Positions 3,120-44,829 of a stretch of DNA of 64,000 nucleotides are shown here, in pieces. The stretch is from an uncultured Nitrospira sp. Its GTDB lineage: Bacteria > Nitrospirota > Nitrospiria > Nitrospirales > Nitrospiraceae. How positions within the stretch are numbered: the stretch's first letter is position 1; each line of letters opens with the position of its first letter. The translations under genes and the position numbers were made by a program. The notes under the pieces were generated by a model. The model was given only the letters and a program-made list of their open reading frames with translations, was not told the origin of the DNA and did no database searches. The stretch covers positions 9,471 to 73,470 of the forward strand of contig CABVRV010000003.1 in assembly GCA_902500755.1 (NCBI GenBank). The letters are read 5' to 3'.

Positions 3120-3131
3120 CGGCACACTGCG

Positions 3132-3190
3132 AGTTCCAGGTTTCAAGTTTTAAGGCCCCTGTCTCAACAGGTAACTTGGAACGTGAAACT
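3132..3190. terminator. Imperfect inverted repeat between convergent gspK and the REC-kinase gene (heptamer-built, possible bidirectional terminator)
   Basis: agttccaggtttcaagtt (3132-3149) pairs 15/18 with aacttggaacgtgaaact (3173-3190). Confidence 0.55.
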
Positions 3191-4089
3191 TAATCAAGCG
3201 GTACCATGATCGTCACTTCATTACCGCATTCATTGTAGGCTAAACTAGGAAAAAACGAACGAGTCAAAAAGATCCCTCTCCCATTCGCGCCTTCCGACTC
3301 ACATACTTCCTGCGAGCGCATGAGCAGACTCCGCCATTTGAAACCCTTGCCTTCATCGGTGATGCGATAAAGCAGACTGTTACCGCTCTTCTCGTAGAGC
3401 GCATGAATGGTCACGCGCCGATCTCTGAGCCGAGCTTGGGCCAAGCGTCGGGCGAGGAGCTGTTCATACTGTCCGTCCGCCAGAGCCTCTTGTTTCTCTT
3501 GGTAAAAGATTTCGAGATTCCCATGTTCGATGGCATTGAAGAGCAATTCTTGTAACGCTCCTTGAAGGTGCAACCGCCGCGTCGGCGGCAAAGCGGACGC
3601 CGTAGTCTTCATCAACCAGGAAATAATTCCTGAGATATGGGCAGGATCCGAGTCCACAGTCAGGCTATACTCTGATCGGCACACTCCCGGAAGATCAGCC
3701 AGATCTCCAGGCAGGAGTCCGCGCGCGCGCTGAATTGCGTGGGCCAATTCTTCTTCGGCGATAGGTTTATGAAGATAGTCGGCGGCTCCGACGCGCAGCG
3801 CCTCCAGGATCATCGGTTCCGGCGCGTCTTGGGCCATCACAATCACGGGGCAGGGATCATGTCTGGCTTTGAGCTTTTTCACCAATCTGAGTCCGGCTGC
3901 GTCGGGGAGAAATAAATCGGTGAGTACTATGTCCGGGGCCGTGGAATCGATGGTCGCCAATGCCGCTGCCGGATCATCCACGGCGACGACCGAAAACCCT
4001 CTGCCCCGCAAGTGCTGGGCGATGCACGCTTGGGTCTCTGGACACGAGTCGATGACCAACAGATGATCCGAGGTGTCCGGCATGTTCAT
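3190..4089 (-). CDS. Response regulator: REC + RsbW-like HATPase_c Ser kinase / anti-sigma domain
   Basis: REC with VLTDLFLPD and LHKPI; N-box ELLFNAIEHGN, G1 ITDEGKGF, G2 GRGIFL. Confidence 0.85.
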   Translation of the reverse strand: MNMPDTSDHLLVIDSCPETQACIAQHLRGRGFSVVAVDDPAAALATIDSTAPDIVLTDLFLPDAAGLRLVKKLKARHDPCPVIVMAQDAPEPMILEALRVGAADYLHKPIAEEELAHAIQRARGLLPGDLADLPGVCRSEYSLTVDSDPAHISGIISWLMKTTASALPPTRRLHLQGALQELLFNAIEHGNLEIFYQEKQEALADGQYEQLLARRLAQARLRDRRVTIHALYEKSGNSLLYRITDEGKGFKWRSLLMRSQEVCESEGANGRGIFLTRSFFPSLAYNECGNEVTIMVPLD

Positions 4090-4445
4090 GCGGCAAGTCC
4101 TTTGTCCCGTTCATGGCGAAGCGCATTCAGCAGACGCAAGAGTTCCTGTTCCAGCGTGACATAGAGCGCTTCAGCATGCTGAAGATTTCCGGCCTTTGCG
4201 GTTTCCTCTAATGTTTTGCATGCGTGAAGGGCAGCCGGAGCGCAAAACTGGAGGATCGCTCCCTTCAACCGATGACTGGATCGGGTCAAACCGGCGGCGT
4301 CTTGCGCGCCGAGTGTTGCTTTCGCTTCCGCTAAGTCCTTCGGCCCGTGTTCGATGAAGAGTTCCACCATCATGTCAAACGTCTCTCGGTCGTGATCGAC
4401 TCGGGAAAGCGCCTCATCAAGACTGAAGACGGAATCATGATTCAT
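4086..4445 (-). CDS. Stand-alone Hpt phosphotransfer protein
   Basis: SSHRLKGAILQFCA Hpt motif with conserved His; 119 aa helical protein. Confidence 0.9.
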   Translation of the reverse strand: MNHDSVFSLDEALSRVDHDRETFDMMVELFIEHGPKDLAEAKATLGAQDAAGLTRSSHRLKGAILQFCAPAALHACKTLEETAKAGNLQHAEALYVTLEQELLRLLNALRHERDKGLAA

Positions 4446-4457
4446 AAGATCCGCTCT

Positions 4458-5666
4458 CTACACGACTGCCGCCGTCACCTCGACACCCATCAGAGCCACA
4501 TCATCGGGAAATTGTTCGTGCCCCTGCCATCGGATCGCTTCCTCAATGGATCCCGCCACGACTTCCGTCAGAGGTCGGGGGCCGAAACCACGAATTGTCT
4601 CTTCCAGCCGATCTTGTCCCCACAATTCTCCGCTCGCATCCGGAACTTCATAAAGGCCGTCGCTCAACAGGTACAATCGATCACCCGGTGCGATCGTGAG
4701 ATCTGTCGTCACATACACCGTCGAGGCATCAAACCCGAGCGGTAAGTTAGGTCGAGTCATCCAACGGAATTCTCCAGACGCTCGTTGGAGAAACGCCCCA
4801 TTGTGACCGGCAGTGGCGTAGGAGAGGGTACGGGTACGCATGTCGAGTCTGGCAAAGATGATCGTAAAGTAGTTCCCGTCTTCCGTCAGCGGGAACTGTT
4901 TGTTGGCTTCCGTGAGAATGGAACCCGGATCAGTCGACCCGACATGCCGGAGCAAGTTGCCTCGTCGCAGAAATGTTGAAAGAGATGCGGAGCGCAATGC
5001 CGGCGAGACACCATGACCGGAAGCATCCAGCAAGTACAACCCCAACACACCATCGCCCCACGAAACGATGTTAAACAGGTCCCCGCCCAAGCCGAGCGAG
5101 GGTCGATAGGCATGCACCATCTGAACGCCGGGTAAGACGATGCCCGGCGCCGGGAGCAGCGATTCAACGTAGCGCGCCGCGGATTGCAGCTCTCGCTCGA
5201 GCACCTCCTGCTTGCGCCGAATCTCCCCGGTCGCGTCTTCTAATCGCCGGATCAGGGTCGCGGCGCGTATTCCGGACTGAACGCGAGCCGTGATTTCATA
5301 CTTGCTGGCGGCTTTGCTGAGAAAATCATCGGCCCCACGGGCCAATCCCTCGGCGATCTGCTCAGGTTGATCGTGGCTCGTCATCATGAGGATCTGACTG
5401 GTGAGCAGCTCAGGATCTTGGCGCACCCGTTCACAGAAGGACGGGCCGTCGATTTCAGGCATCATCCAATCTAAAATGGTCAGATCCGGTCGTTCACGAC
5501 GCAGCGCATCCAGTCCGGATTTGCCGTCGACCGCCTCGATCACGCGGTACCCCATCCGCTTGAGTCGAGCCGCCAGCGCAATGCGCGCGGTCGGCTCATC
5601 GTCCACGATGAGCACAGTTTGCCGCGCCACCTGAGCTGTTTGTTCAACCGACGTTGATGGCATCAC
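4458..5666 (-). CDS. REC + PP2C/SpoIIE Ser phosphatase (RsbU/RsbY-like)
   Basis: REC LIVDD..ILDWMMPEIDG..FLSK; PP2C LGGDLF, DASGHG, ATAGH, LSDG, DDVALM. Confidence 0.92.
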   Translation of the reverse strand: MMPSTSVEQTAQVARQTVLIVDDEPTARIALAARLKRMGYRVIEAVDGKSGLDALRRERPDLTILDWMMPEIDGPSFCERVRQDPELLTSQILMMTSHDQPEQIAEGLARGADDFLSKAASKYEITARVQSGIRAATLIRRLEDATGEIRRKQEVLERELQSAARYVESLLPAPGIVLPGVQMVHAYRPSLGLGGDLFNIVSWGDGVLGLYLLDASGHGVSPALRSASLSTFLRRGNLLRHVGSTDPGSILTEANKQFPLTEDGNYFTIIFARLDMRTRTLSYATAGHNGAFLQRASGEFRWMTRPNLPLGFDASTVYVTTDLTIAPGDRLYLLSDGLYEVPDASGELWGQDRLEETIRGFGPRPLTEVVAGSIEEAIRWQGHEQFPDDVALMGVEVTAAVV

Positions 5667-5694
5667 AAATCCCGCGTCAAAGTTACGTCATGTT

Positions 5695-5754
5695 TGTGAA
5701 GCGTCGTTCGTGAAGCGTGAAGTGTCTGAATCAAAAGACGAGATACGCTTCACG
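5695..5754. repeat. Intergenic heptamer repeat / hairpin element
   Basis: tgtgaag|cgtcgtt|cgtgaag|cgtgaag ... acgagat|acgcttc|acg. Confidence 0.65.
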
Positions 5755-5763
5755 CCGTCTGAC

Positions 5764-6114
5764 CTAGGCGGCTCGTTGTTGTGAGGCCAACGCATCTTGC
5801 TCGTTATCGTAGACGGGGATCAATTTCTGAATGTTTGCCAGGCTCATGATTTCCCGCACGTAGCTCTGCGGCTTCAACATACTCACTTTCCCTTGGCCCA
5901 ACTTAAAGTTTTGCGAGACCAGCGCAAGCAGTCCTAACCCGGAACTATCGACGAAGCGCACCTCGGACATATTCAAGATGAGATGCCGACAGCCCTTCTG
6001 CCGGATCGCTTCCACCGCCGTTTTGAATTGCTCACGATTGGCGTAGGTGAGATCTCCCGTCAACTCCAGAACCACACCGTTCGGCACTGGGCGTTCCTTC
6101 ACTTGCATGGCCAT
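5764..6114 (-). CDS. STAS anti-anti-sigma factor
   Basis: LELTGDL, LILNMSEVRFVDSSGLGLL (phospho-acceptor DSSG). Confidence 0.92.
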   Translation of the reverse strand: MAMQVKERPVPNGVVLELTGDLTYANREQFKTAVEAIRQKGCRHLILNMSEVRFVDSSGLGLLALVSQNFKLGQGKVSMLKPQSYVREIMSLANIQKLIPVYDNEQDALASQQRAA

Positions 6115-6162
6115 GACTTCCTCCTTCTTTCAATTCGGTCGAGACCGGTTCGTATCTTCCTC

Positions 6163-6501
6163 TCATGCGGCTCGAGCTTCAGCCGCCGCCTCCTCTGTTG
6201 GAAACACAGGAATCATCCTGTCTAGATTTGCCATCTCGAGAATCGTTTTCACCGTGCCTTGTGGCCCGACCAAGCTGAGCATTCTCTCGTCCGCCGTGAG
6301 CTGTTGGGACGTTAGTGCCAGCAAGCCGACAGCGGCACTATCGACATAGGTGGCATCGTGTAAATCGACGATGAGATGTTTACTTGGGGACTCCCTAAAT
6401 GTCTTCACCGCAGACGAGAAGTCTTTCCGGTTACGGTGCGTAAAGACATCGTCGATGTGCACCACGGTGGTCGTGTGTGAAGTGCGTTGAGTAATCGGCA
6501 T
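6163..6501 (-). CDS. Second STAS anti-anti-sigma factor
   Basis: LIVDLHDATYVDSAAVGLL..LEMANLDRMIPVFPTEEAA. Confidence 0.88.
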   Translation of the reverse strand: MPITQRTSHTTTVVHIDDVFTHRNRKDFSSAVKTFRESPSKHLIVDLHDATYVDSAAVGLLALTSQQLTADERMLSLVGPQGTVKTILEMANLDRMIPVFPTEEAAAEARAA

Positions 6502-6562
6502 ACAAACTCCCAGACAAATAGAGACTCAGTTGGATATGGTAGTCGTACTGGACTGCTTACTA

Positions 6563-6590
6563 TTGTCGGCTGGTTTTCCTCGGGACTTGA
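6563..6590 (-). promoter_or_regulatory. sigma28 (FliA) promoter for the STAS-STAS-PP2C-Hpt-kinase operon
   Basis: Minus strand TCAA-N16-GCCGACAA, 62 bp upstream of the STAS start. Confidence 0.7.
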
Positions 6591-6623: not shown

Positions 6624-7463
6624 TTAGGGCAACTTTGGGCGATCTATTCCAGACAACTCCGGTTGCAGCTGCGATGCGCCTGCTGGCATATCATCCGTTG
6701 ATTGCTCAGAGCCATCCGTCTCATGTTCTGCCCGGAGAAGTGAATCGGGTGGCGCTTGCTCAAGAATAATAACTTCAACTCGACGATTTTTGGCCCTTTG
6801 TTCAGAATCTAGATTGCCCGTCACTGGCCTCGTGTCGGCATGTCCTACCGCGGCAAGGTGGTCGGACGGCACACTGTAGAGTTCCGACAGCACTCTGACG
6901 ACCATCACAGCTCGAGCAGCCGATAAGTCCCAGTTGGAAGGAAATTGTGCCGTACGGATCGGAACATTATCCGTATGTCCCTCGACTTTGGTATGGCGGT
7001 TGAGCTCGACAAGCGCCCCGCTTAATCCCTCAAGAAATGGTAGTGCTTCCGCACGCACCGCAGCTTCTCCGCTGTTGAACAACAGCTGGTCTGGGATCGT
7101 GATGACGATGTCGCCGTTGACTTTTTCGGTGATTCGCACCGTCGACATCTGGGGGACCGCCTTGATGCTCTTCACCAAATTTCTCAGTTTTCTGATCACC
7201 ACCTCCTTACTCCCAGGCGTGTCCGGAGCCGTGAGTGCCGCTTTGTTGGCGCTCAACGAAAAGGGGGTAGGAGAGGACGGAGGACTTACGACTGGATTGA
7301 GCGCCGCCTTGATCGATTCACTGACGGTTCGGTACTTTCCGACGTTGACGGAGGAGATCGAGTACATCACGACGAAAAACGCAAAGAGTAAGGTAATGAA
7401 GTCGGCGTATGAGACCAGCCACCGCTCGTGGTTTTCGTGTTCCTCGTGCTTGTGCTTCGCCAT
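6624..7463 (-). CDS. motB: Flagellar stator protein MotB
   Basis: WLVSYADFITLLFAFFVVMYS; OmpA-like VEGHTD..SNWDLSAARA..NRRVEV. Confidence 0.96.
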   Translation of the reverse strand: MAKHKHEEHENHERWLVSYADFITLLFAFFVVMYSISSVNVGKYRTVSESIKAALNPVVSPPSSPTPFSLSANKAALTAPDTPGSKEVVIRKLRNLVKSIKAVPQMSTVRITEKVNGDIVITIPDQLLFNSGEAAVRAEALPFLEGLSGALVELNRHTKVEGHTDNVPIRTAQFPSNWDLSAARAVMVVRVLSELYSVPSDHLAAVGHADTRPVTGNLDSEQRAKNRRVEVIILEQAPPDSLLRAEHETDGSEQSTDDMPAGASQLQPELSGIDRPKLP

Positions 7464-7470
7464 TGATCAC

Positions 7471-7557
7471 CGTGACGCGTGAAACGTGCAACGTGAAGCG
7501 TTTGAGTCATCCCTCTTTAAGACCATCACGAGATACGAATGACGCTTCACGAACGAC
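7471..7557. repeat. Intergenic heptamer inverted-repeat element between motA and motB
   Basis: cgtgacg|cgtgaaa|cgtgcaa|cgtgaag|cgt ... acgagat|acgaatg|acgcttc|acgaacg|ac. Confidence 0.75.
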
Positions 7558-7558
7558 A

Positions 7559-8329
7559 TCATTTTTTTGTCTCCTTGGTCCGCTCGCTTTGGGGCAGAAC
7601 GCCCTCTAACTTTTCCTGAAGCAACCGAGGATTTTCACCTTGAGCAAGTCCTACGAGTCCCATAATGACCAGGTTGCGAGCACCCGCTTCTTCCTTCAGC
7701 TTCAGTTTGATCTTATTGGCAAGTGGAAGAAAAAACAGGTTCGCTGCGCCGACGCCGTAGACGGTGGCAACGAACGCCACCGCGATACCGCTGCCTAGTT
7801 TTGAGGGATCAGCTAGATTTTCCATCACGTGGATCAGCCCAAGCACCGCGCCGATGATGCCGACGGTCGGCGCATACCCACCGGCCGCTTCCCAGACCTT
7901 GGCTGCGATCACGCCCTGCTCCTCATGATGCTCCACCTCGATCTCAAGAATCTCGTGCACGGCTTTCGGTTCTGTTCCGTCGACGATGAGTTGAATCCCT
8001 TTTTTCATGAACGGATCCTTAATGTCCTTCAGCTTTCCTTCCAGCGCCAACAACCCTTGTTTCCGCGAGATCGTGGCGAGATCTAAGATGAGTTTAATCG
8101 TTCCTTTGTTGTCGATATGAGGGCCTGCGATCGCGATGGACAGCGCACCAAACGCCTTGATGACCACCGATAACGGATTTTGTATGCAAATCGCGCCGAA
8201 GGTGCCGCCGATCACGATGATGAAGGCGGTGAGCTGCATGATCGAGCCGACGTGCCCACCCTCCAGTACTTGGCCCCCGATAATGGAGCCCAACGCGATC
8301 GCTATTCCAAGGATTGTGGCAATATCCAT
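7559..8329 (-). CDS. motA: Flagellar stator protein MotA
   Basis: RKQGLLALE, GIQLIVDG, GGYAPTVGIIGAVLGLI, AFVATVYGV. Confidence 0.96.
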   Translation of the reverse strand: MDIATILGIAIALGSIIGGQVLEGGHVGSIMQLTAFIIVIGGTFGAICIQNPLSVVIKAFGALSIAIAGPHIDNKGTIKLILDLATISRKQGLLALEGKLKDIKDPFMKKGIQLIVDGTEPKAVHEILEIEVEHHEEQGVIAAKVWEAAGGYAPTVGIIGAVLGLIHVMENLADPSKLGSGIAVAFVATVYGVGAANLFFLPLANKIKLKLKEEAGARNLVIMGLVGLAQGENPRLLQEKLEGVLPQSERTKETKK

Positions 8330-8341
8330 TATTCCGGCGCC

Positions 8342-8536
8342 TCATTTGAATCCGAATTGAGCCAGGATATCGTCGGCTACTTGCTGTTTCATGGCCGTCA
8401 TTTTCGAATCATCGAGTTGCTTCAGCAGGTGACCGGCTGTGCCTTCGACACCCCTGTTCTCCCCGTTCTGTTGAATACTGAAGATCGCGACCAGTTCCAC
8501 TAATTTGTTTTGCACGTCATCGAGTATGGTCACCAT
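8342..8536 (-). CDS. CheZ C-terminal-like 64-aa protein (truncated remnant or mini-CheZ)
   Basis: LDDVQNKLVELVAIF ... QQVADDILAQFGFK resembles the CheZ tail and CheY-binding C-helix; lies between cheY and motA; no DxxxQ catalytic motif. Confidence 0.65.
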   Translation of the reverse strand: MVTILDDVQNKLVELVAIFSIQQNGENRGVEGTAGHLLKQLDDSKMTAMKQQVADDILAQFGFK

Positions 8537-8543
8537 CCATGGC

Positions 8544-8924
8544 TTACTTGAAAATCTTGCCGAGCTTCTCGTGCATGGTCTCTGCCGTAAAGGGCTTGAC
8601 AATGTAGTTACTCACCCCGGCTTGAACGGCCTCAACCAGATTGCTCTGTTGAGCTTCAGCCGTCACCATCAACACAGGAATAGCTTTGAGTTTCTCGTCC
8701 GCCCTAATTGCACGGAGCATATCGATGCCCGTCATGACCGGCATGTTCCAATCGGAGACGACGAATCCGTACGTATCGCCCCGTAGCTTTTGCAGGGCTT
8801 CCTGCCCGTTTTCGGCTTCGTCACAATTGGGAAATCCCAGCTGTTTCAGAATATTTTTTATGATCCTTCTCATCGTGACCATGTCATCGACGACGAGGAT
8901 TTTCATGTTGGGATCGGCTGGCAT
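8544..8924 (-). CDS. cheY: Chemotaxis response regulator CheY
   Basis: [29 protein letters not shown]; start moved to the ATG at 8924 behind GAGG. Confidence 0.93.
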
Positions 8925-9024
8925 GATGCCTCTTTTTTTCTGCTTCGACTGTCCCAACACGAGGACGCACTGCTAACAAAACCGTGGTGGTGGGCGTCTT
9001 CGTGACGCCCCTGCACTTCACTCC

Positions 9025-9052
9025 ATATCGGCACATGCCTCGAATGACCTGA
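9025..9052 (-). promoter_or_regulatory. sigma28 promoter for cheY-(cheZ-like)-motA-motB
   Basis: Minus strand TCAG-N16-GCCGATAT. Confidence 0.6.
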
Positions 9053-14604: not shown

Positions 14605-15432
14605 TTATCCTCTGAGTAGAGCCAGCGCCTGTTGCGGGAGCGTATTGGCTTGTGCCAGCGTGGCAATTCCCGCCTGCACCAAGATCTGATTCTTCGTGAA
14701 TATGGATGTCTCGAGTGCGATATCGGCATCTCGGATCCGCGATTCTGCAGCCGTGAGATTTTCGCTCGTGACCTGCAGATTTGCGATCGTCGCCTCAAAC
14801 CGGTTCTGAATGGAACCGTATTCGGCTCGTGCCGTTGCAATCGCGCTGATCGCATTGTCGATATTCGCCAACGAACTCGTCGCATTGGCGGAGGTGGAAA
14901 CGTTCACCGAGGACAATCCCAACGAGGTGGTCGTGATGTCGTTGAGATCCAGGCTCAGCGTATTCCCCGCGCCACTGCGGAAGCCGATGGCGATGGAGAA
15001 GCTGATCGTGCTGCCACTGGTCAGCGCCTGACCGTTGAACTCGGTCACTTGGGCGATCCGGTCGATTTCCGAACGCAGAGCGATGAACTCTTGATCGATG
15101 TAAGACCGTTCTGTATTCCCGACCGTCCCGCTCGCGGACTGTGAAGACAGCTCACGGAGCCGAGCCAGCAGTGAGCCGATGGTGGCAGCCGCGCCGTCGG
15201 CAATCTGCGTGAGGCTGATGCCGTCCGAGGCATTTCGAGTCGCCTGATTGATGCTGCGAATCTGCGCCCGCAAGGACTCGGACAAACCAAGGCCCGCGGC
15301 ATCATCCGCAGCTCGTGTCACCCGAAGGCCGGATGACAACCGTTCCACCGAACGGTTCAAACTCAGGGTGTTAATCGAGAGGTTCCGCTGAGCCGCGATA
15401 GACGCGGGGTTGTTATTAACGATAAGAGCCAT
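14605..15432 (-). CDS. fliC: Flagellin (275 aa, minimal, essentially D0/D1 only)
   Basis: ERLSSGLRVTRAADDAAGL, AESRIRDADIA, LAQANTLPQQALALL. Confidence 0.97.
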   Translation of the reverse strand: MALIVNNNPASIAAQRNLSINTLSLNRSVERLSSGLRVTRAADDAAGLGLSESLRAQIRSINQATRNASDGISLTQIADGAAATIGSLLARLRELSSQSASGTVGNTERSYIDQEFIALRSEIDRIAQVTEFNGQALTSGSTISFSIAIGFRSGAGNTLSLDLNDITTTSLGLSSVNVSTSANATSSLANIDNAISAIATARAEYGSIQNRFEATIANLQVTSENLTAAESRIRDADIALETSIFTKNQILVQAGIATLAQANTLPQQALALLRG

Positions 15433-27883: not shown

Positions 27884-27911
27884 TCAAGTTCCACGCCTAC
27901 TTCGCCGATAA
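27884..27911 (+). promoter_or_regulatory. sigma28 promoter for the HD-GYP / hybrid kinase operon
   Basis: TCAAGTTC-N12-GCCGATAA. Confidence 0.8.
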
Positions 27912-27980: not shown

Positions 27981-29231
27981 ATGGCGACAAAGCGCATCGC
28001 AATCGAGCAGCTCATTCCCGGCATGTTCGTCGTGGAGATGGATGTTCCCTGGTACCGGACACCGTTTCTCTTCCATAAACGGTTGATCAACGATCTCCAG
28101 ACTATTGATCTCATGAAGCAACATGGGATTCGGATGGTGACGATCGACACCGGCAAAGGATCCGATCTCCCATCAGCGACGACTCAACCGTGTGTCAACG
28201 ACGACTCGGCCGCCCCGAACGTGGCCTTTCCGCAAGAGCCACACACTCAGCAGGCGATCGAACGCACACGTGCTGAGCAACCGGCTGTGGTCATCTATGC
28301 GCAGGCACAAGAAGCGGTTGAACGCATTTTCAATGACCTTGAGCGTGGAGTCCCTCCGACCCCCGAGGCGACGAAAGCCATCGTCTCAAATGTTCTGGAC
28401 CAAGTCCTTAATGACCGAGCTGCCATAGCGACTCAGGTTGCCATTCAGAAAATCAAACAGTTCGATCGGTCTCTGACAACCCACGCGTTGGATGCCTGCA
28501 TCTTATCTCTCATCGTCGCCGTTGAAAGTGACCTTGACCAACCGCTACAAGAATTGGTCGGAATGGGAGCCTTGCTCCACGACGCAGGCTATGTCCGTCT
28601 CCCACGCAATCTGGTTCGGAAGCGAGACGAATGCACCGGACAAGATAAAACATTGCTGGAACAGCATTGCAAGCTCGGCGTGACACTCCTTTCGGAACAA
28701 CCTGGTATGCACGAGGATGTCCTTCGAATCGTACGGGAGCATCATGAACGGTCGGACAAGAGCGGCTTTCCAGCCGGCCTTGGTCACGATCAGACCTCAC
28801 GTCTTGCTCAAATCGTCGGAATCGTCGATTTCTACGACGGCATGGTCAGTCGACGCGGGGCCCGACCAGCGATGATTCCCCACGATGCCGTTCGGCAACT
28901 CTTCCTCGCGGGAGAACGAGGGCAATTTGAAAAGACCTTAGTGGAGGTGATGATTCGGAGCATCGGCGTCTACCCGGTTGGAAGCCTGGTCAGGCTCAAC
29001 ACAGGCGAACAGGCAGTTGTCGTCGGAGCCAATCCACAGCAACGGCTCAAACCACTCGTCAAAGTCACGACCGATCCACAAGGTGGATCCTATGCGACAC
29101 CGATCGAAATCGACCTGGCTGCGCCGTCCTCAGACCACACTGTACGAAGCGTGCTGCGTGTGCTCGACCCGGTTCGTGAGCGCGTCAACATCGGCATACA
29201 TCTGGACACGACTTTGCCGCGAGCCGCATGA
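27981..29231 (+). CDS. HD-GYP c-di-GMP phosphodiesterase family protein (DUF3391-type N-terminus)
   Basis: IAIEQLIPGMFV; LLHDAG, HHERSDKSGFP, VDFYDGM. Confidence 0.88.
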   Translation: MATKRIAIEQLIPGMFVVEMDVPWYRTPFLFHKRLINDLQTIDLMKQHGIRMVTIDTGKGSDLPSATTQPCVNDDSAAPNVAFPQEPHTQQAIERTRAEQPAVVIYAQAQEAVERIFNDLERGVPPTPEATKAIVSNVLDQVLNDRAAIATQVAIQKIKQFDRSLTTHALDACILSLIVAVESDLDQPLQELVGMGALLHDAGYVRLPRNLVRKRDECTGQDKTLLEQHCKLGVTLLSEQPGMHEDVLRIVREHHERSDKSGFPAGLGHDQTSRLAQIVGIVDFYDGMVSRRGARPAMIPHDAVRQLFLAGERGQFEKTLVEVMIRSIGVYPVGSLVRLNTGEQAVVVGANPQQRLKPLVKVTTDPQGGSYATPIEIDLAAPSSDHTVRSVLRVLDPVRERVNIGIHLDTTLPRAA

Positions 29232-32119
29232 TGAAACCGCCTAAACGAAAACGGGGGCGATATCGACGCCGAAAGGCGACCTCTCAACCTGCGGCTTCCG
29301 TTGCGCGGGACCTCCTTGAAGGGCTTCCTGTTGCCGCTCTCGTTCTCAACCCCGATCTGACGGTCCAGGCTATCAACCGAGAGGGCATTCGGCTACTCGG
29401 ATCACGATGTCGATCCAGCCATGGATCATCGTTCCCGGTGCTATGGGCAAAACTTACCCGGTCTCGCGAATCACGCATTTCTGCACAGCTGAATAGCACA
29501 TTTAAAACCAATCGTCCGGTCTCAACGACTCAACAGCTCTTCGCAGGAAGCAAGACGACGAACACTCCTGTCGAGTGGACGTGCCTCCCGAGCGAGCTCA
29601 ATGGTACGAGAGTTCTGGTCATCAGCATTCGAGACCTCTCCCATGAAATGGAGTTGGAGCAAGACCGTGATCGCTTGGCAGCAATCGCCGAAGAAAGCCC
29701 TTCACCCCTTATCGAACTGGATCGGGATTCCAGTCTGTTGTATGCCAATCCTGCCATGATTTCGCTACTCTCTCGATTTGGGTACAGCCTCGACGGATTC
29801 CCAAACGTGGCGCCACGCCGACTTCCGAACATTGTCGAGCACTGCCTCAACACCGGTCAGACACTCCATCACGAAGAAGTCCTCCTACCGGAAGCCAGTT
29901 TTTCTTGGACCTTTTGTCCAGTGCCTCATCATGGAGTGGTTCGCGGCTATGCGACCGACATGACAAACGTTCACAAGACGCAGCAGGCGCTCCGGTTATC
30001 AGCCGACCAACTTCAGCAGAGCAATCAACGACTGGACAAGGCGCTTGATGAAGCGAAAGAGTCTGCGCGCGTCAAAACGGCGTTCCTTGCCACAGTCAGC
30101 CACGAGTTGCGAACGCCCATGAACGGCGTGATCGGCATGACAAGTCTCCTGATGGAGACATCTTTGACGTCTGAGCAGCAGTCGTACACCGAAACCATAC
30201 GCCAGTGCGGAGAGGCGCTGCTGCAACTGATCAATGATGTGCTCGAATGCAGCAAGATTGAGGCGGGAAAACTGGAGCTGGAGTGCCTCGATTTCAATCT
30301 GCGAACCACGGTAGAGCAGGTCCTCGCGCAGTTTGCCGAACGCGCTGAGACGAAAGGTCTTGAGTTGACCGGGCTGGTCCATGCAGCGGTGCCGACTGGA
30401 CTCAACGGCGACCCTGGACGATTGCGCCAGATCCTGACCAATCTTGTGGCGAACGCCGTAAAATTTACCGACAAAGGAGAAGTGACACTGCAGGCCTATC
30501 TTGAAGAAGACCTATCGGATTCCGCGGTCATTCGGTTCGAGGTCACCGACAGCGGCATCGGCATCAGTCCGAATACTCAGGCCAGGCTCTTTCGTCCATT
30601 CATGCAGGCTGACAGTTCAACGACGAGAAAATACGGCGGCACCGGCCTTGGCCTGTCCATTTCGAAACAACTCGTGGAGTTGATGGGAGGAAGTATCGGC
30701 GTACGGAGCTCCGAAGGACAAGGGAGTACCTTCTGGTGCACGGCGCGCCTTCTCAAACAAGCCGGCTCGCCGCGTGCCATTCTTCCGATGGGAGATCTCG
30801 CAGGGAAACATGTCTTGATCGTCGATGACAACGAATCGAATCGTCTGATTCTCCATCATTTGGTATCCGGCTGGGGAATGGTTGACGATCTGGCAGAGGA
30901 CGCCGAATCCGCTTTGCACCGGATATCTGAGGCGACACGACGAGGAACTCCGTACGATCTTGCGATCTTGGATGTCATCATGCCGGGAAAGGACGGGCTT
31001 CAGCTCGCCCGAGAACTTCAGCATCATCCAGAGGGATCTGGGATTCGCCTTGTCGTGATGACCTCGATGCTTCAACGAGGCCACGCGGAGCAGGCGCGTC
31101 AAGCCGGCGCCATGGGTTATCTACCGAAACCTGTGCGCCACGACGAATTGCGAGACTGTTTGCGAACCGTTCTCGGTCTGGCTGAGAGTCCAAGGCCAAA
31201 GGAACCTCAAACACTCTCGGTCGTTCCTCAACTGGTCACCAGGCATACGGTCGCCGAGAACGTCCAACACCGACGCGTCCTCGTGGTGGAAGACAATCTG
31301 GTCAACCAAAAGCTTGCCGTCCGCATGGTCGAGAAACTGGGTTATCAGCCTGATGTTGTCGACAATGGCCAAGAAGCCTTGACAGCACTGAAGAAGTGCG
31401 ACTATGCCGCTATTTTAATGGATTGTCAGATGCCCATCATGGATGGCTTTGAGACAACCAAGAATATTCGCGAGCGTGAAGCAATGGCTACATCTGGTGG
31501 ACCACCGGCTCAGGCAGATCCTCAATTAAGCATAGGCTCGTCTTCCCTACCGCATATGCCGATCATTGCGGTGACCGCCAATGCCATGCAAGGAGATCGA
31601 GAACGTTGTTTGGCGGCTGGGATGGATGATTATCTTTCGAAGCCGATCAAACTGGATGAACTCCGCGCTGCCCTTGCACGTTGGATCACCTCACCGTCTA
31701 CCAACGCCGTGTCTGAACAACAGCAGCCTGTGTACACCACGACCGCCCCTACTCGAGGGATCTTTGACCCCGCCAGGATGTACCAGAATATCGGCAGCGA
31801 CAACGAATTATTCGCGCAACTCATCTGTCTGTTCCTCGATCGTCACCAGACCATGTTGGCTGAGATCAGAACGGCGCTCGCCGATGGTGATTCGTCCGCG
31901 GTGGAGCGGACTGCTCACACCTTCAAGGGAACGGCGGGAAATCTTTGCGCTTCTGAAGTAGGACTCACCGCTAGTCGTCTGGAAGCTGTCGGTCGTCTCA
32001 GTGCGCTTCACGATGCCCCTCCCGTCTATGCGCAACTCGAGCTTGAGGTCGCACGACTCGTTCGCGTGTTGGAATCCTACCGGCAGGGGTATCAGCCCAT
32101 CACTGAGGCAGCCGCCTAG
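29228..32119 (+). CDS. Soluble hybrid histidine kinase (PAS-PAS-HisKA-HATPase-REC-REC-Hpt)
   Basis: SHELRTPMNG, NLVANAVKFT, DSGIGI, GGTGLGL; two RECs; AHTFKGTAGNL Hpt; no obvious TM segment. Confidence 0.93.
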   Translation: MMKPPKRKRGRYRRRKATSQPAASVARDLLEGLPVAALVLNPDLTVQAINREGIRLLGSRCRSSHGSSFPVLWAKLTRSRESRISAQLNSTFKTNRPVSTTQQLFAGSKTTNTPVEWTCLPSELNGTRVLVISIRDLSHEMELEQDRDRLAAIAEESPSPLIELDRDSSLLYANPAMISLLSRFGYSLDGFPNVAPRRLPNIVEHCLNTGQTLHHEEVLLPEASFSWTFCPVPHHGVVRGYATDMTNVHKTQQALRLSADQLQQSNQRLDKALDEAKESARVKTAFLATVSHELRTPMNGVIGMTSLLMETSLTSEQQSYTETIRQCGEALLQLINDVLECSKIEAGKLELECLDFNLRTTVEQVLAQFAERAETKGLELTGLVHAAVPTGLNGDPGRLRQILTNLVANAVKFTDKGEVTLQAYLEEDLSDSAVIRFEVTDSGIGISPNTQARLFRPFMQADSSTTRKYGGTGLGLSISKQLVELMGGSIGVRSSEGQGSTFWCTARLLKQAGSPRAILPMGDLAGKHVLIVDDNESNRLILHHLVSGWGMVDDLAEDAESALHRISEATRRGTPYDLAILDVIMPGKDGLQLARELQHHPEGSGIRLVVMTSMLQRGHAEQARQAGAMGYLPKPVRHDELRDCLRTVLGLAESPRPKEPQTLSVVPQLVTRHTVAENVQHRRVLVVEDNLVNQKLAVRMVEKLGYQPDVVDNGQEALTALKKCDYAAILMDCQMPIMDGFETTKNIREREAMATSGGPPAQADPQLSIGSSSLPHMPIIAVTANAMQGDRERCLAAGMDDYLSKPIKLDELRAALARWITSPSTNAVSEQQQPVYTTTAPTRGIFDPARMYQNIGSDNELFAQLICLFLDRHQTMLAEIRTALADGDSSAVERTAHTFKGTAGNLCASEVGLTASRLEAVGRLSALHDAPPVYAQLELEVARLVRVLESYRQGYQPITEAAA

Positions 32120-32156: not shown

Positions 32157-32639
32157 TTACGCAGGACACTCTGTCGCAGGGTGCACAGTGGTAGGTGCTT
32201 CTGTGGCGGGGAGCACTGCAGGAAACAACGGATGTCTGGTGGGAAACTCTTCAGAGAGGACCAACTGTTTCCCGAGCTTGGTCGTGTTACTGATGAGCAG
32301 CGGACCACGAAGATTGGCGGTGATTCGACCTGGATCATCCGAAGGAATGGTCAAGATCACAACCAAGGCAAGATCATCCCTCTGTCCTTCCTTGATCTCT
32401 GCCAGAGCATCGACAGGAACCTCAATATGGTAATCAGGATGGAACGTCGCCGGATCCATGAGGACAAAGGCCAGCCCAGGCTCGTCAACCGATTGCAGCC
32501 ACTTGAAAGGGGCTTCGGTGTCGTGATCAAGTATCACGTAACGCTGTTGCTCGGGAAACCCAAGCAGCCCGGAAGGAAACCGGACGATACTGTCCTCGGA
32601 AACTTCGAAAGATCCAAAGCGGGTCGATGTGCACTTCAC
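32157..32639 (-). CDS. fliW: Flagellar assembly factor FliW
   Basis: FPSGLLGFP, FKWLQSVDEPGLAF, TANLRGPLLI. Confidence 0.95.
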   Translation of the reverse strand: MKCTSTRFGSFEVSEDSIVRFPSGLLGFPEQQRYVILDHDTEAPFKWLQSVDEPGLAFVLMDPATFHPDYHIEVPVDALAEIKEGQRDDLALVVILTIPSDDPGRITANLRGPLLISNTTKLGKQLVLSEEFPTRHPLFPAVLPATEAPTTVHPATECPA

Positions 32640-32930: not shown

Positions 32931-32958
32931 TTATCGGCCATCCATGATGCAAACTTGA
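32931..32958 (-). promoter_or_regulatory. sigma28 promoter for csrA-fliW
   Basis: Minus strand TCAAGTTT-N12-GCCGATAA. Confidence 0.85.
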
Positions 32959-37366: not shown

Positions 37367-37672
37367 TTAGAGTATGGCGTCTGTCAGAACCTGTCTCACA
37401 AGGGCATCACCTACCGCACGGCCACTGACATCATACGTTCCACTCTCAAGGGAGCGCCTGATGCTCTCCACTCGTTCAGCCCGCTCAGGATCCGGTTGAT
37501 TTACCAACTCGCGAATCCGTTGCAGTTCCTTCGCCTGGGTGGAAATCTGAACTTCATCTTTCCCCGCTTGGGTGCGAGCAGTTGCTTGTCGAGCCCCGGA
37601 ACTTTCAGCTTCGTGAACTCCAAGCAACACCTTTGCAAGATGATCGACTTTCCCATGACCTGAAATTTGCAT
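37367..37672 (-). CDS. flgM: Anti-sigma28 factor FlgM
   Basis: DEVQIS..RAERVESIRRSLESGTYDV. Confidence 0.92.
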   Translation of the reverse strand: MQISGHGKVDHLAKVLLGVHEAESSGARQATARTQAGKDEVQISTQAKELQRIRELVNQPDPERAERVESIRRSLESGTYDVSGRAVGDALVRQVLTDAIL

Positions 37673-37749: not shown

Positions 37750-37777
37750 TTATCGGCTCCTACCCGTCAGAACTTGA
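37750..37777 (-). promoter_or_regulatory. sigma28 promoter for flgM-flgN-flgK-flgL
   Basis: Minus strand TCAAGTTC-N12-GCCGATAA. Confidence 0.85.
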
Positions 37778-43168: not shown

Positions 43169-43918
43169 TCAACTCGTCGCTTGCAAGTGCGCTTTGAGAC
43201 GAATGATAGCCTTCGTGTGGACTTGACAGACGCGTGATTCAGTCACCTTCATGAGCTCTCCGATTTCCTTCATGGTGAGCTCTTCATAGTAATAGAGTGT
43301 CAGCACCAGCCGTTCTTTTTCCGGCAGCAGCCGAATGGCCGTGGCGATCACTTCACGTTCGCGTTCGTTGACCAAGGACGAGAGTGGATCAGGAGTATGC
43401 GTGTCCGCCAGCATCTTGACCACTTTATGGCCGTCCGGCTCCTGTAGACTCAAATCGTCGACGCTGATCAGCACGGCGCCTCGGGCGCGGGTGATGAAAT
43501 CGTCCAGCTCCTCCATCGACATCTTCAACTCCGCCGCGACCTCCTCATCATGCGGAGGGCGACCCAGTCGGCTCATGAGTGTCACATGCGTTTTTTGGAG
43601 CAACCCGATGCGTTCGTGAACGGATCGCGGAATCCAATCCATCGAGCGAATTTCATCCAACATGGCGCCCCGAATGCGGAACTCGGCATAGGTCTTAAAT
43701 TTCGCCTCTCGAGTGGGATCGTACTTGTCCATGGCATCCATCAACCCAATGGTGCCGACTGAGATCAGATCCTCGGCATCCAAGTAGGCTGGGAGTCGAA
43801 AGGCCAGCCGATGAGCCATCGCGCGAATCACGTGAGCGAACTCTTTGATGAGTTCCTCGCGCCTGGCTCCCTGCGCAATGAAGGATTTACGCACATGCGA
43901 TACGGCAGTCTTTCTCAT
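43169..43918 (-). CDS. fliA: Flagellar sigma factor FliA (sigma28)
   Basis: FKTYAEFRIRGAMLDEIRSMDW, YYYEELTMKEIG..ESRVCQVH; start inferred at ATG 43918. Confidence 0.96.
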   Translation of the reverse strand: MRKTAVSHVRKSFIAQGARREELIKEFAHVIRAMAHRLAFRLPAYLDAEDLISVGTIGLMDAMDKYDPTREAKFKTYAEFRIRGAMLDEIRSMDWIPRSVHERIGLLQKTHVTLMSRLGRPPHDEEVAAELKMSMEELDDFITRARGAVLISVDDLSLQEPDGHKVVKMLADTHTPDPLSSLVNEREREVIATAIRLLPEKERLVLTLYYYEELTMKEIGELMKVTESRVCQVHTKAIIRLKAHLQATS

Positions 43919-43941
43919 GTTTGTTCCATTCGAGCTTGTGT

Positions 43942-44829
43942 TCAGCCACCGGCATGCGTGGCTGATCGTTGCCAAACGAGTTGCACAGAGCTTTTGGGGA
44001 GGCCGGGCTTCGGCCACTGAACCACCTGTTGCGCAAGCCGCTTGAATGCTTGCGCAGCCGGCGCGTCTGGAAACATGTCGGAAACTGCCTTTTGTTGCAT
44101 CACTGCCATATGAATGTAGTCGTCGTAAGGAATCGCTCCGACCAACTCGACGGATACATGAAGGAAACGATCGACCGCCACATCAAGCTTCCCAAACACT
44201 TCTGACGCTTCTCGGGGACTTTTAGCTTGATTCACGAGGACCTTGAACCGACGTTCTCGGTATTGGCGAGCCAAGACCTTGATCAAGGCATACGCGTCCG
44301 TGAGCGAGGTGGGTTCCGGGGAGATGATCACCATCGTCTCATCTGCCGACGAGGCAAAAAAGGTGACGTTCGGCGAGATCCCCGCACCAGTGTCGATCAG
44401 AAGCACGTCCATCTCTGCAGCGAGATCTGCCAGCTGTTCTTGAATCATCAACTGTTGCGATTCCGTCAATGACGTCAGGCGTGGGACACCTGAGCTGGCC
44501 GGCAGAACATGGATCCCTGCCGGACCTTTCAGCATGATCTCCGCTAGGGTATGGGTGCCGACCAACACGTCTTCGATGGTATGTCGTGGAACAAGTCCTA
44601 GGAGTACATCAAGATTGCCGAGACCAAGATCAGCATCGAGGAGAAGTACTCGTTTCCCTGCCTTCGAGAGCGACACCGCAAGATTCGCCACCACGTTAGT
44701 TTTTCCAACCCCACCTTTCCCGCTGGCGACAGCAATGACTTGAGTGGCCAACTCACCTCCTGCATCCACATCATCCGACACAAGGACGGCTTTTCTCATT
44801 CTGAGTTGCATAGCGTGACCTCCAACCAA
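43942..44829 (-). CDS. flhG: FlhG (FleN)
   Basis: ASGKGGVGKT, DADLGLGN, PEPTSLTDAYALIK; downstream of flhF. Confidence 0.93.
   Translation of the reverse strand: MVGGHAMQLRMRKAVLVSDDVDAGGELATQVIAVASGKGGVGKTNVVANLAVSLSKAGKRVLLLDADLGLGNLDVLLGLVPRHTIEDVLVGTHTLAEIMLKGPAGIHVLPASSGVPRLTSLTESQQLMIQEQLADLAAEMDVLLIDTGAGISPNVTFFASSADETMVIISPEPTSLTDAYALIKVLARQYRERRFKVLVNQAKSPREASEVFGKLDVAVDRFLHVSVELVGAIPYDDYIHMAVMQQKAVSDMFPDAPAAQAFKRLAQQVVQWPKPGLPKSSVQLVWQRSATHAGG

Follow-up and report, generated by a model that had tools for sequence, protein, structure and literature searches.

The stretch of DNA analysed here, called the window, is 64,000 nucleotides long and comes from an uncultured Nitrospira sp. 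(contig CABVRV010000003.1 of assembly GCA_902500755.1). Close to its start lies a cassette of five genes that encode, in the order of reading, two STAS proteins (STAS1 and STAS2), a phosphatase with a receiver domain (REC-PP2C), a phosphotransfer protein (Hpt), and a kinase that also carries a receiver (REC-kinase). A complete flagellar cluster fills the remainder of the window, and Table 1 lists the features with their coordinates. An initial annotation, made from the letters of the window, had described these genes as a partner-switching operon driven by sigma-28 (FliA) and resembling a split HptB-HsbR-HsbA system. From its domain content, the cassette is a conserved variant of the known bacterial partner-switching systems. 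Nitrospira, which include key nitrite oxidisers and comammox organisms, are difficult to approach genetically, and next to nothing is known of how their motility is controlled.

Table 1. Features of the window, with positions counted from its first letter (E, E-value).
Feature	Position	Strand	Description
Hairpin between kinase stop and convergent gspK stop	3120-3189		possible bidirectional terminator, weak; -18.1 kcal/mol, z -0.7; no canonical terminator called
REC-kinase (REC-HATPase_c_2)	3190-4089	-	299 aa; Pfam Response_reg + HATPase_c_2; Bergerat-fold Ser kinase/anti-sigma-like
Hpt	4086-4445	-	119 aa; PF01627 E 2.4e-10; motif SHRLKG; stand-alone phosphotransfer protein
REC-PP2C	4458-5666	-	402 aa; Pfam Response_reg + SpoIIE; SpoIIE-type phosphatase
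Spacer STAS2/REC-PP2C	5667-5763	-	97 nt; REP-like inverted repeat (hairpin)
STAS2	5764-6114	-	116 aa; PF01740 E 5e-20; motif FVDSSGLG, Asp56-Ser57 (DSSG)
STAS1	6163-6501	-	112 aa; PF01740 E 2.6e-16; motif YVDSAAVG, Asp54-Ser55 (DSAA)
5' leader and deletion junction	6502-6562	-	ribosome-binding site GGGAG 8 nt before STAS1 ATG
Sigma-28 (FliA)-type promoter	6563-6590	-	reads TCAAGTCCCGAGGAAAACCAGCCGACAA; TCAAGT-N14-GCCGACAA, i.e. TCAA-N16-GCCGACAA
motB	6624-7463	-	directly upstream of cassette
motA	7559-8329	-	upstream of cassette
cheY	8544-8960	-	upstream of cassette
Second sigma-28-like box	9025-9052	-	TCAG-N16-GCCGATAT, upstream of cheY-motA-motB; one mismatch per element; read from the sequence
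Flagellin (fliC)	14605-15432		sigma-28 box 98 nt upstream
Sigma-28 box of HD-GYP/hybrid-kinase operon	27884-27911	+	precedes both genes
HD-GYP-type protein	27981-29231	+	416 aa; DUF3391 + HD_5
Hybrid histidine kinase	29228-32119	+	963 aa; PAS-PAS-HisKA-HATPase-REC(x3)-Hpt; same sigma-28 box as HD-GYP gene
fliW	32157-32639	-	sigma-28 box at 32931-32958 (-), just downstream of flgL
flgM	37367-37672	-	own sigma-28 box at 37750-37777
fliA (sigma-28)	43169-44017	-	252 bits, above cut-off

The gene architecture and the promoter box can be read directly from the DNA. The list of open reading frames (ORFs) and the Pfam domains placed all five genes on the minus strand at 3190-6501, where the initial annotation had put them. 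Its two STAS motifs (DSSG and DSAA) are both present, phosphatase and kinase are indeed separate proteins with one receiver each, and no sigma factor gene was found in the operon, nor in any of 21 orthologous loci (see below). The stop codon of the Hpt gene and the start of the kinase gene overlap by 4 nt (ATGA), which suggests that the two genes are translationally coupled. NCBIfam grouped STAS1 and STAS2 with anti-sigma-factor antagonists, and a search of the five proteins against the same collection returned no equivalog for any of them.

The box preceding the cassette had been read as a sigma-28 promoter, TCAA-N16-GCCGACAA, and it is present at 6563-6590. Strict matches to the pattern TCAAGT-N14/15-GCCGAYAA number 4 in the window, whereas shuffled sequences give an expectation of 0.01. 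The three other strict matches precede flgM, fliW and an operon encoding an HD-GYP protein and a hybrid histidine kinase, and a fifth copy, one base shorter, lies upstream of flagellin. Flagellin, flgM and fliW are textbook sigma-28 genes. When a looser pattern was applied to the whole genome, 9 matches were obtained, and 5 of the 6 that begin with TCAAGT fall in this flagellar cluster. A box was also detected after motB, at the orthologous position, in six other Nitrospira genomes (L002, L001g, L004g, L006g, L009g and L021), some of them with weaker -10 elements. With a motif common to fliC, flgM and fliW, an excess of matches over shuffled sequence and a position kept in relatives, the sigma-28 assignment of the cassette promoter is well supported. 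Both fliA and flgM are encoded within the window, and the proposed connection of the cassette to sigma-28 and its place in a flagellar cluster are supported. Terminator calling and folding detected no terminator and no stable structured leader in the gap between motB and STAS1; read-through from the sigma-28-like box upstream of cheY may therefore add to the expression of the cassette.

To see how far the cassette is conserved, one genome per species was scanned with the family profile, which yielded 80 loci, among them 21 from Nitrospira and other Nitrospiraceae with enough flanking sequence. The order (STAS1)-STAS2-REC-PP2C-Hpt-REC-kinase was kept in these 21. The closest homologues of the kinase were all from Nitrospira, with Candidatus Nitrospira kreftii as the best named match (89-91% identity). 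STAS1, which is about 33% identical to STAS2, was missing from 6 of the 21 loci (L007, L009, L010, L019, L021 and L023). Because of these absences we conclude, on comparative grounds, that STAS2 (DSSG) is the core target and STAS1 (DSAA) a lineage-specific paralogue. The two STAS targets of the initial annotation are a feature of some lineages.

The residues on which a partner switch depends were also conserved. The pair carrying the phosphorylatable Ser is invariant in both STAS proteins (D54-S55 in 14 STAS1 orthologues, D56-S57 in 23 STAS2 orthologues), and it aligns with the Asp57-Ser58 position of Bacillus subtilis SpoIIAA. SpoIIAA proteins, together with TM1081, are the nearest solved relatives of STAS2. 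The phospho-accepting His of Hpt (in SHRLKG) is invariant in 24 orthologues, and the metal-binding motifs of the phosphatase (GGDLF, DASGHG, SDG, DD) are intact here and invariant in 23; its receiver is canonical. The ratio of nonsynonymous to synonymous substitution rates (dN/dS) of the five genes, measured against three relatives, ranged from 0.03 to 0.16 (0.04-0.06 for STAS1, 0.03-0.04 for STAS2). Judged by these ratios, the cassette is under purifying selection across Nitrospiraceae.

Among 121 Nitrospiraceae genomes, tallied by hand as raw genome counts that ignore shared ancestry, 47 had the cassette, as scored by its kinase gene, and 42 of these were FliA positive. Five kinase-positive genomes gave no FliA match (G018, G022, G048, G052 and G053). 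Of four such loci that were examined, two had che genes and one both mot and che genes beside the cassette, and the contig of the fourth was too short. We did not retain these genomes as an argument against a flagellar role, given that che or mot genes still adjoin the cassette in G022 and G052; they probably reflect gaps in detection or assembly. Throughout Nitrospiraceae, the kinase gene was consistently found beside che or mot genes, and on these counts and this gene neighbourhood the link of the cassette to motility is firm.

The neighbourhood also indicated where the cassette comes from. In most relatives, at 13 or more loci, the first STAS gene starts 15-30 nt after cheB with no promoter motif in between, and cheD, cheR and genes for methyl-accepting chemotaxis proteins (MCPs) lie upstream. 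In a complete Nitrospira chromosome (L004, G001), motA-motB is followed by a sigma-28-like box, a further STAS gene (STAS0, 100 aa), a gene for a 200-aa protein, cheY, cheA and cheW, then by genes for a 1599-aa PAS/GAF histidine kinase, a REC protein and two MCPs, and finally by cheR, cheD, cheB and the five-gene cassette. A second genome (G004) has a shorter operon of che genes and cassette, with TCAAGTAACGGACAGGATCAGCCGACAC overlapping the end of motB. Read from this gene order, the cassette is ancestrally the last five genes of a motB-linked chemotaxis operon, and the promoter after motB is that of the che operon. That an autonomous five-gene operon came first was considered and rejected: the cheB-STAS linkage is general in Nitrospiraceae and is found in one Thiotrichaceae genome as well, and remnants of cheB persist beside the cassette in L011, L017 and L024. 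The arrangement described initially, five genes behind a sigma-28 box of their own, is thus true of the window, but it is secondary, as the promoter originally belonged to the che operon.

Three side observations concern these che operons. On the che-positive chromosome, the 100-aa STAS protein and the 200-aa protein, which has no Pfam match, stand at the head of the operon, before cheY-cheA (L081:2017-2319 and L081:2392-2994); they resemble the small CheS-type proteins with which alphaproteobacterial che operons begin. At L001:3169-3570, in the closest relative of the window, cheR and cheD are separated by an inserted gene that encodes a 23S-rRNA-intervening-sequence protein (PF05635). The Thiotrichaceae metagenome-assembled genome (MAG) has a gammaproteobacterial version of the cassette (L079:2412-8897), with cheB, REC-GGDEF-EAL, STAS, REC-PP2C and REC-kinase and no Hpt gene.

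How the cassette came to adjoin the promoter could be traced at the junction. In relatives STAS0 comes after the box behind motB; the window and one other MAG (L002) have at this place a leader of about 55 nt and then STAS1. Only L002 shares this leader, which showed no homology either to the leader of STAS0 or to the junction between cheB and STAS1 in che-positive relatives. The window aligns with the che-positive chromosome through motB, and the alignment resumes 4 nt before the ATG of STAS1, everything between being absent. For cheR, cheD, the cheB methylesterase, STAS0 and these MCPs alike, no orthologue was found in the assembly from which the window comes, which is 94% complete; another contig encodes a different CheA/CheW pair. 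This strain has kept flagella, cheY and motAB, without the cognate cheA, cheW, cheR, cheB and MCP genes. In L001, the closest relative, motB lies about 20 kb from the cassette. We conclude from the alignment that a che block, about 10-20 kb long in relatives and about 20 kb here, is deleted, and that this loss has left the cassette behind the sigma-28 promoter of the che operon. An assembly artefact was dismissed, since the junction lies within one gapless contig, the same junction occurs in the independent MAG L002, and no che orthologues are found elsewhere in the assembly.

The deletion is not an isolated case. Remnants of cheB lie beside the cassette in three loci (the last 62, 193 and 93 codons in L011, L017 and L024, respectively), and in two others (L013 and L015) nothing of cheB is detectable at the protein level. 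Because the remnants differ, the comparison indicates that the che genes are lost repeatedly and independently, with different end points, and that the cassette is spared each time. These losses form a natural deletion series, which shows that the function of the module is separable from chemotaxis proper. The cassette genes of the window are closer to those of the che-positive L001 (synonymous divergence, dS, 0.2-0.8) than to those of L002 (dS 1.0-2.0), despite the junction and leader common with L002. An L002-type junction on L001-like cassette genes suggests recombination.

With all che genes of the operon gone, the cassette might here be a functionless leftover, expressed from an orphaned promoter with neither input nor output, and the dN/dS of the two enzymes is somewhat higher relative to the closest relative (0.14-0.16) than in deeper comparisons (0.06-0.09). 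We consider this reading extremely unlikely. None of the five reading frames is broken and no catalytic residue is missing, dN/dS is still well below 1, and gspK, outside the cassette, exhibits the same slight rise at short distance. Moreover, the same che-less arrangement is found in a second, divergent MAG (dS above 1), and several independent che deletions with differing end points all spare the cassette.

The kinase deserved closer attention. A search of 1.8 billion representative proteins returned well over a hundred clusters of proteins of about 300 aa that align with it end to end at 27-47% identity. They are spread over Spirochaetota, Planctomycetota, Riflebacteria, Sumerlaeota, Bacteroidota and others, and with the queries used, STAS or PP2C genes were mostly not detectable beside these members. 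An alignment of 40 sequences of the family revealed an invariant N box (E-x3-N-A-x-E-H-G) and G1 box (D-E-G-x-G-F), plus a G-R-G motif. All three boxes are intact in the window (N, E181, N185, H189-G190; G1, D245-x-G-x-G; G2, G270-R-G) and invariant or nearly so across orthologues, and the protein is best conserved in its kinase domain. The N box is separated from the G1 box by a helical insert of about 35 residues that is specific to the family (GNLxIxxxEKxxALxxGxYxxLxxxR; residues ~192-225 of the window protein, alignment columns 225-265) and that, to our knowledge, classical RsbW and SpoIIAB do not have.

The only solved member of this family is LvrC of Leptospira (PDB 9QIH), matched with a phmmer E-value of 8.2e-17 and with 213 bits by the family profile, over residues 4-295. 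An AF2 model of the kinase (pLDDT 90.9) also had LvrC as its top Foldseek match (E 1.5e-21, 307 aligned columns, TM-score 0.47), with a different orientation of the domains. The PDB label of 9QIH, "SenB", was not followed, as it leads to unrelated selenoneine enzymes; the PDB code itself gives LvrC. By both sequence and fold, the kinase is a full-length member of an LvrC-type REC-Bergerat family. According to the text available of a 2026 paper, LvrC combines a receiver with an RsbW-like Bergerat fold, is phosphorylated by the histidine kinase LvrB, and is put forward as an anti-sigma factor under receiver control, with a sigma partner yet to be identified (PMC13269768). The Nitrospira kinase resembles it in its two-domain architecture, its length and the full-length match of sequence and structure, and the LvrC receiver, in the LvrA-LvrB-LvrC phosphorelay, is fed by a histidine kinase. 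In contrast, identity is 22-23%, the available description of LvrC contains no STAS proteins, whereas the Nitrospira kinase gene shares a conserved operon with genes for STAS proteins, a PP2C and an Hpt, and the receiver of the Nitrospira kinase has a degenerate acidic pocket. This receiver reads D14-S15 (DD to DS), D58, A86 (T to A) and K108; it is the least conserved part of the kinase, with D14 kept in less than 70% of Nitrospiraceae sequences, D58 in at least 90% and K108 in 70-90%. An LvrC-type protein in a conserved STAS/PP2C operon suggests that the family works in partner switches. This connection, together with the natural deletion series left by the loss of che genes, is the main value of the locus.

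Natural fusions were found in which the kinase is joined to other components: REC-kinase-PP2C in Magnetospirillum, REC-kinase-REC-PP2C in SAR324, and HisKA-HATPase-REC-REC-kinase in L076. Because such fusions exist, the REC-kinase appears functionally tied to REC-PP2C and to histidine-kinase input. They bear as well on the comparison with HsbR. Descent by splitting of HsbR was rejected, since the kinase belongs to a family of ~300-aa proteins and the order in the fusions is REC-kinase-(REC)-PP2C, not the REC-PP2C-kinase of HsbR. Of the "split HptB-HsbR-HsbA system", the domain inventory of a phosphorelay-controlled partner switch stands and the derivation from HsbR falls; by analogy, the phrase may describe how the system works, not where it came from.

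We then compared the cassette with known partner switches. The chemistry of its kinase, PP2C and STAS proteins is like that of RsbU/RsbV/RsbW and SpoIIE/SpoIIAA/SpoIIAB in Bacillus, where the operons encode their own sigma factor (sigma-B or sigma-F). Likewise, the N, G1 and G2 boxes of the kinase and the metal-binding Asp motifs of the phosphatase are intact, and STAS2 is nearest to SpoIIAA; unlike them, the Nitrospira operon has no sigma gene and has an Hpt gene, and we know of no receiver in the Bacillus kinases RsbW and SpoIIAB. RsbY of B. cereus is a REC-PP2C protein that acts as a phosphatase. The best solved relative of the Nitrospira phosphatase is RssB of Pseudomonas aeruginosa, also a REC-PP2C protein (PDB 3EQ2/3F7A; 3EQ2 at E 6e-32, covering REC and most of PP2C), and RR_RssB_Pseudo was its top NCBIfam match, at 111 bits against a cut-off of 700, which means that the phosphatase is not an orthologue of RssB.

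The closest parallel in inventory is HptB-HsbR-HsbA of P. aeruginosa (PA3345-PA3347). Likened by domain content, both have a stand-alone Hpt, a REC-controlled PP2C, a Ser kinase of HATPase_c_2 type and a STAS protein whose Ser can be phosphorylated; both lie beside flagellar and che genes (hsbA next to cheR) and, in Nitrospira putatively, receive input from hybrid histidine kinases. HsbA binds FlgM, and the hsb genes adjoin cheR (PMC6482189; bioRxiv 10.1101/2021.08.29.457346). The two systems differ in that HsbR is a single REC-PP2C-kinase protein, whereas Nitrospira has two proteins, each with a REC and the kinase of LvrC type; in that the Nitrospira order is STAS-STAS-PP2C-Hpt-kinase, with two STAS paralogues; and in the promoter, of sigma-28 type here and proposed to be sigma-70-like for hsbA of P. 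putida. CrsR-CrsA of Shewanella oneidensis, and HsbR in its action on RpoS, are similar in having a REC-controlled phosphatase/kinase pair that acts on a STAS antagonist, and the kinase domain of CrsR doubles as an anti-sigma factor (PMC6482189). CrsR is, however, a fused three-domain protein with RpoS as its target, whereas the Nitrospira cassette has a motility context.

As for the input, the best candidate phosphodonor, one that we name tentatively, is the 963-aa hybrid kinase of the window, because its operon has a sigma-28 box and because it co-occurs with the cassette: a full-length orthologue was found in 36 of the 42 FliA-positive genomes with the cassette, against 4 of the 24 FliA-positive genomes without it (raw genome counts). 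Hybrid kinases were also found within cassettes. In L087 (genus g14), a 1511-aa dCache-GAF-PAS hybrid kinase that ends in an Hpt domain fills the Hpt slot between the PP2C and kinase genes, and in three further genomes a hybrid kinase gene lies directly beside the REC-kinase gene. We did not retain these proteins as specific orthologues of the 963-aa kinase, as many paralogues gave similar scores.

Taken together, these data leave it possible, in our estimate a little short of even, that the cassette is a phosphorelay-gated partner-switching module of the late (sigma-28) flagellar regulon of Nitrospira. Hybrid sensor kinases, the likeliest of them the sigma-28-driven 963-aa PAS kinase, would pass a phosphoryl group to the receiver of the PP2C protein, using either an Hpt domain of their own or the stand-alone Hpt; a further target may be the LvrC-type kinase, by way of its degenerate receiver. 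The kinase would phosphorylate Ser57 of STAS2 and Ser55 of STAS1, the phosphatase would take the phosphate off, and the phosphorylation state of the STAS proteins would decide which partner is held. The intact catalytic motifs make this kinase/phosphatase/STAS chemistry highly probable. Such a chain of sensor hybrid kinase, Hpt, REC-PP2C and REC-kinase, and STAS would constitute a conserved candidate pathway wired into the late flagellar regulon.

Several observations weigh against this module. The 963-aa kinase has an Hpt domain of its own, which makes its link to the stand-alone Hpt uncertain, and it is one of many paralogous hybrid kinases with similar scores. The receiver of the REC-kinase may not be phosphorylated, its second acidic-pocket Asp and its conserved Thr being lost and its conservation weak. 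The promoter of hsbA in P. putida looks to be of sigma-70 type, so that control by sigma-28 is not conserved among Hsb systems (bioRxiv 10.1101/2021.08.29.457346). Finally, 24 of the 66 FliA-positive Nitrospiraceae genomes, in counts that treat related genomes as independent, have no cassette. It is therefore not needed for FlgM/FliA function and would be an accessory layer.

For the output, control of sigma-28 activity, that is a feedback on late flagellar gene expression, is put forward tentatively as the single most likely possibility, by analogy with the systems above. It could be reached by two routes. In the first, which is somewhat unlikely taken alone, an unphosphorylated STAS protein would bind FlgM, the target proposed in the initial annotation, as HsbA does. 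In the second, quite unlikely, the LvrC-like kinase would hold FliA and be displaced from it by a STAS protein, as in the RsbW and SpoIIAB systems. Such a direct pairing is conceivable because no SigB/F/G-like gene, of the group on which RsbW and SpoIIAB act, was found besides FliA among all sigma-70-family matches of the assembly (where, among the others, only the C24 and C40 genes were classified). A fuller version of this second route, very unlikely as a whole, would make the REC-kinase a phosphorelay-gated anti-sigma-28 factor that sequesters FliA, with STAS2 and STAS1 as its antagonists and REC-PP2C as the releasing phosphatase, the whole having evolved as the transcriptional output arm of a che operon and being kept when the che genes were lost. 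If the kinase did sequester FliA, late genes would have a second checkpoint, independent of FlgM and of secretion, and the LvrC family would gain its missing partners (STAS and PP2C) along with a candidate class of sigma factor.

Instead, the kinase could be an anti-sigma factor of the classical kind whose partner is a non-flagellar sigma factor with its gene elsewhere (RpoS-like on contig C24, RpoD-like on contigs C38 and C40), with the STAS proteins as antagonists, so that motility-phase signals would feed a stress or stationary-phase regulon, as in CrsR-CrsA and HsbR with RpoS, and as proposed for LvrC. The kinase domains of CrsR and HsbR do bind RpoS (PMC6482189), the genome encodes both RpoS-like and extra RpoD-like sigma factors, and the kinase domain is the part of the protein that is best conserved. 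Yet none of the 21 loci has a sigma gene linked to the cassette, which invariably accompanies che or mot genes and is largely confined to FliA-positive genomes, and many HATPase_c_2 kinases serve partner switches that have no sigma output. We regard a non-flagellar sigma factor as an unlikely target.

An output other than a sigma factor was also weighed. A STAS protein would then bind an enzyme or effector of cyclic di-GMP (c-di-GMP) signalling, such as the HD-GYP protein, a degenerate GGDEF protein or a PilZ/YcgR brake, or, in che-positive relatives, the chemoreceptor/CheA array, and the cassette would tune swimming, not gene expression. Phosphorylated HsbA binds the cyclase HsbD (PMC5085249; PMC6482189), and SiaABCD is a further precedent, as cited in PMC9239204. 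The window itself contains PilZ and YcgR-like genes and a GGDEF remnant, and its sigma-28 regulon includes the HD-GYP gene that adjoins the candidate donor kinase; in the Thiotrichaceae relative, a REC-GGDEF-EAL gene stands between cheB and STAS. Another small STAS protein is encoded at the head of the che operon in relatives, and STAS genes are components of some che classes (PMC9239204). On the other side, no c-di-GMP enzyme is encoded inside the Nitrospira cassette, and the cassette is intact and under purifying selection after full loss of the che genes, so that a che array cannot be its sole target. On balance, such an output is rather improbable, albeit about on a par with the FlgM route to sigma-28 control.

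Minor observations were made on the surroundings of the cassette and on the rest of the assembly. Downstream lie gspL, gspM and gspK, type II secretion genes that are convergent with the cassette. Intergenic inverted repeats resembling repetitive extragenic palindromic (REP) sequences lie inside the operon and at its end, as well as at a third site (5695-5754, 3132-3190 and 7471-7557), with folding energies no better than those of shuffled sequence, and a similar sequence lies upstream of STAS2 in L007. The hairpin of the spacer 5667-5763 was accordingly not kept as a significant structure (minimum free energy -31.8 kcal/mol, z -1.3, like shuffled sequence). Between cheY and motA, an ORF of 86 aa (8342-8602, minus strand) matched the C terminus of CheZ only very weakly (Pfam E 0.0094, below cut-off). 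Besides RpoD and FliA, the assembly encodes an RpoS-like sigma factor on contig C24 (317 aa; the RpoS model scores it at 324 bits, below cut-off) and, on contigs C38 and C40, two RpoD-like sigma factors that are about 420 aa long and extended at the N terminus by long segments. A second partner switch is encoded at C61:15500-18900, where the gene for a single 925-aa chain, with membrane segments at the N terminus and then a PAS-like region, PP2C, HATPase_c_2 and STAS, is followed by a separate STAS gene, and a paralogous single STAS gene lies just past the window (C3:82776-83045).

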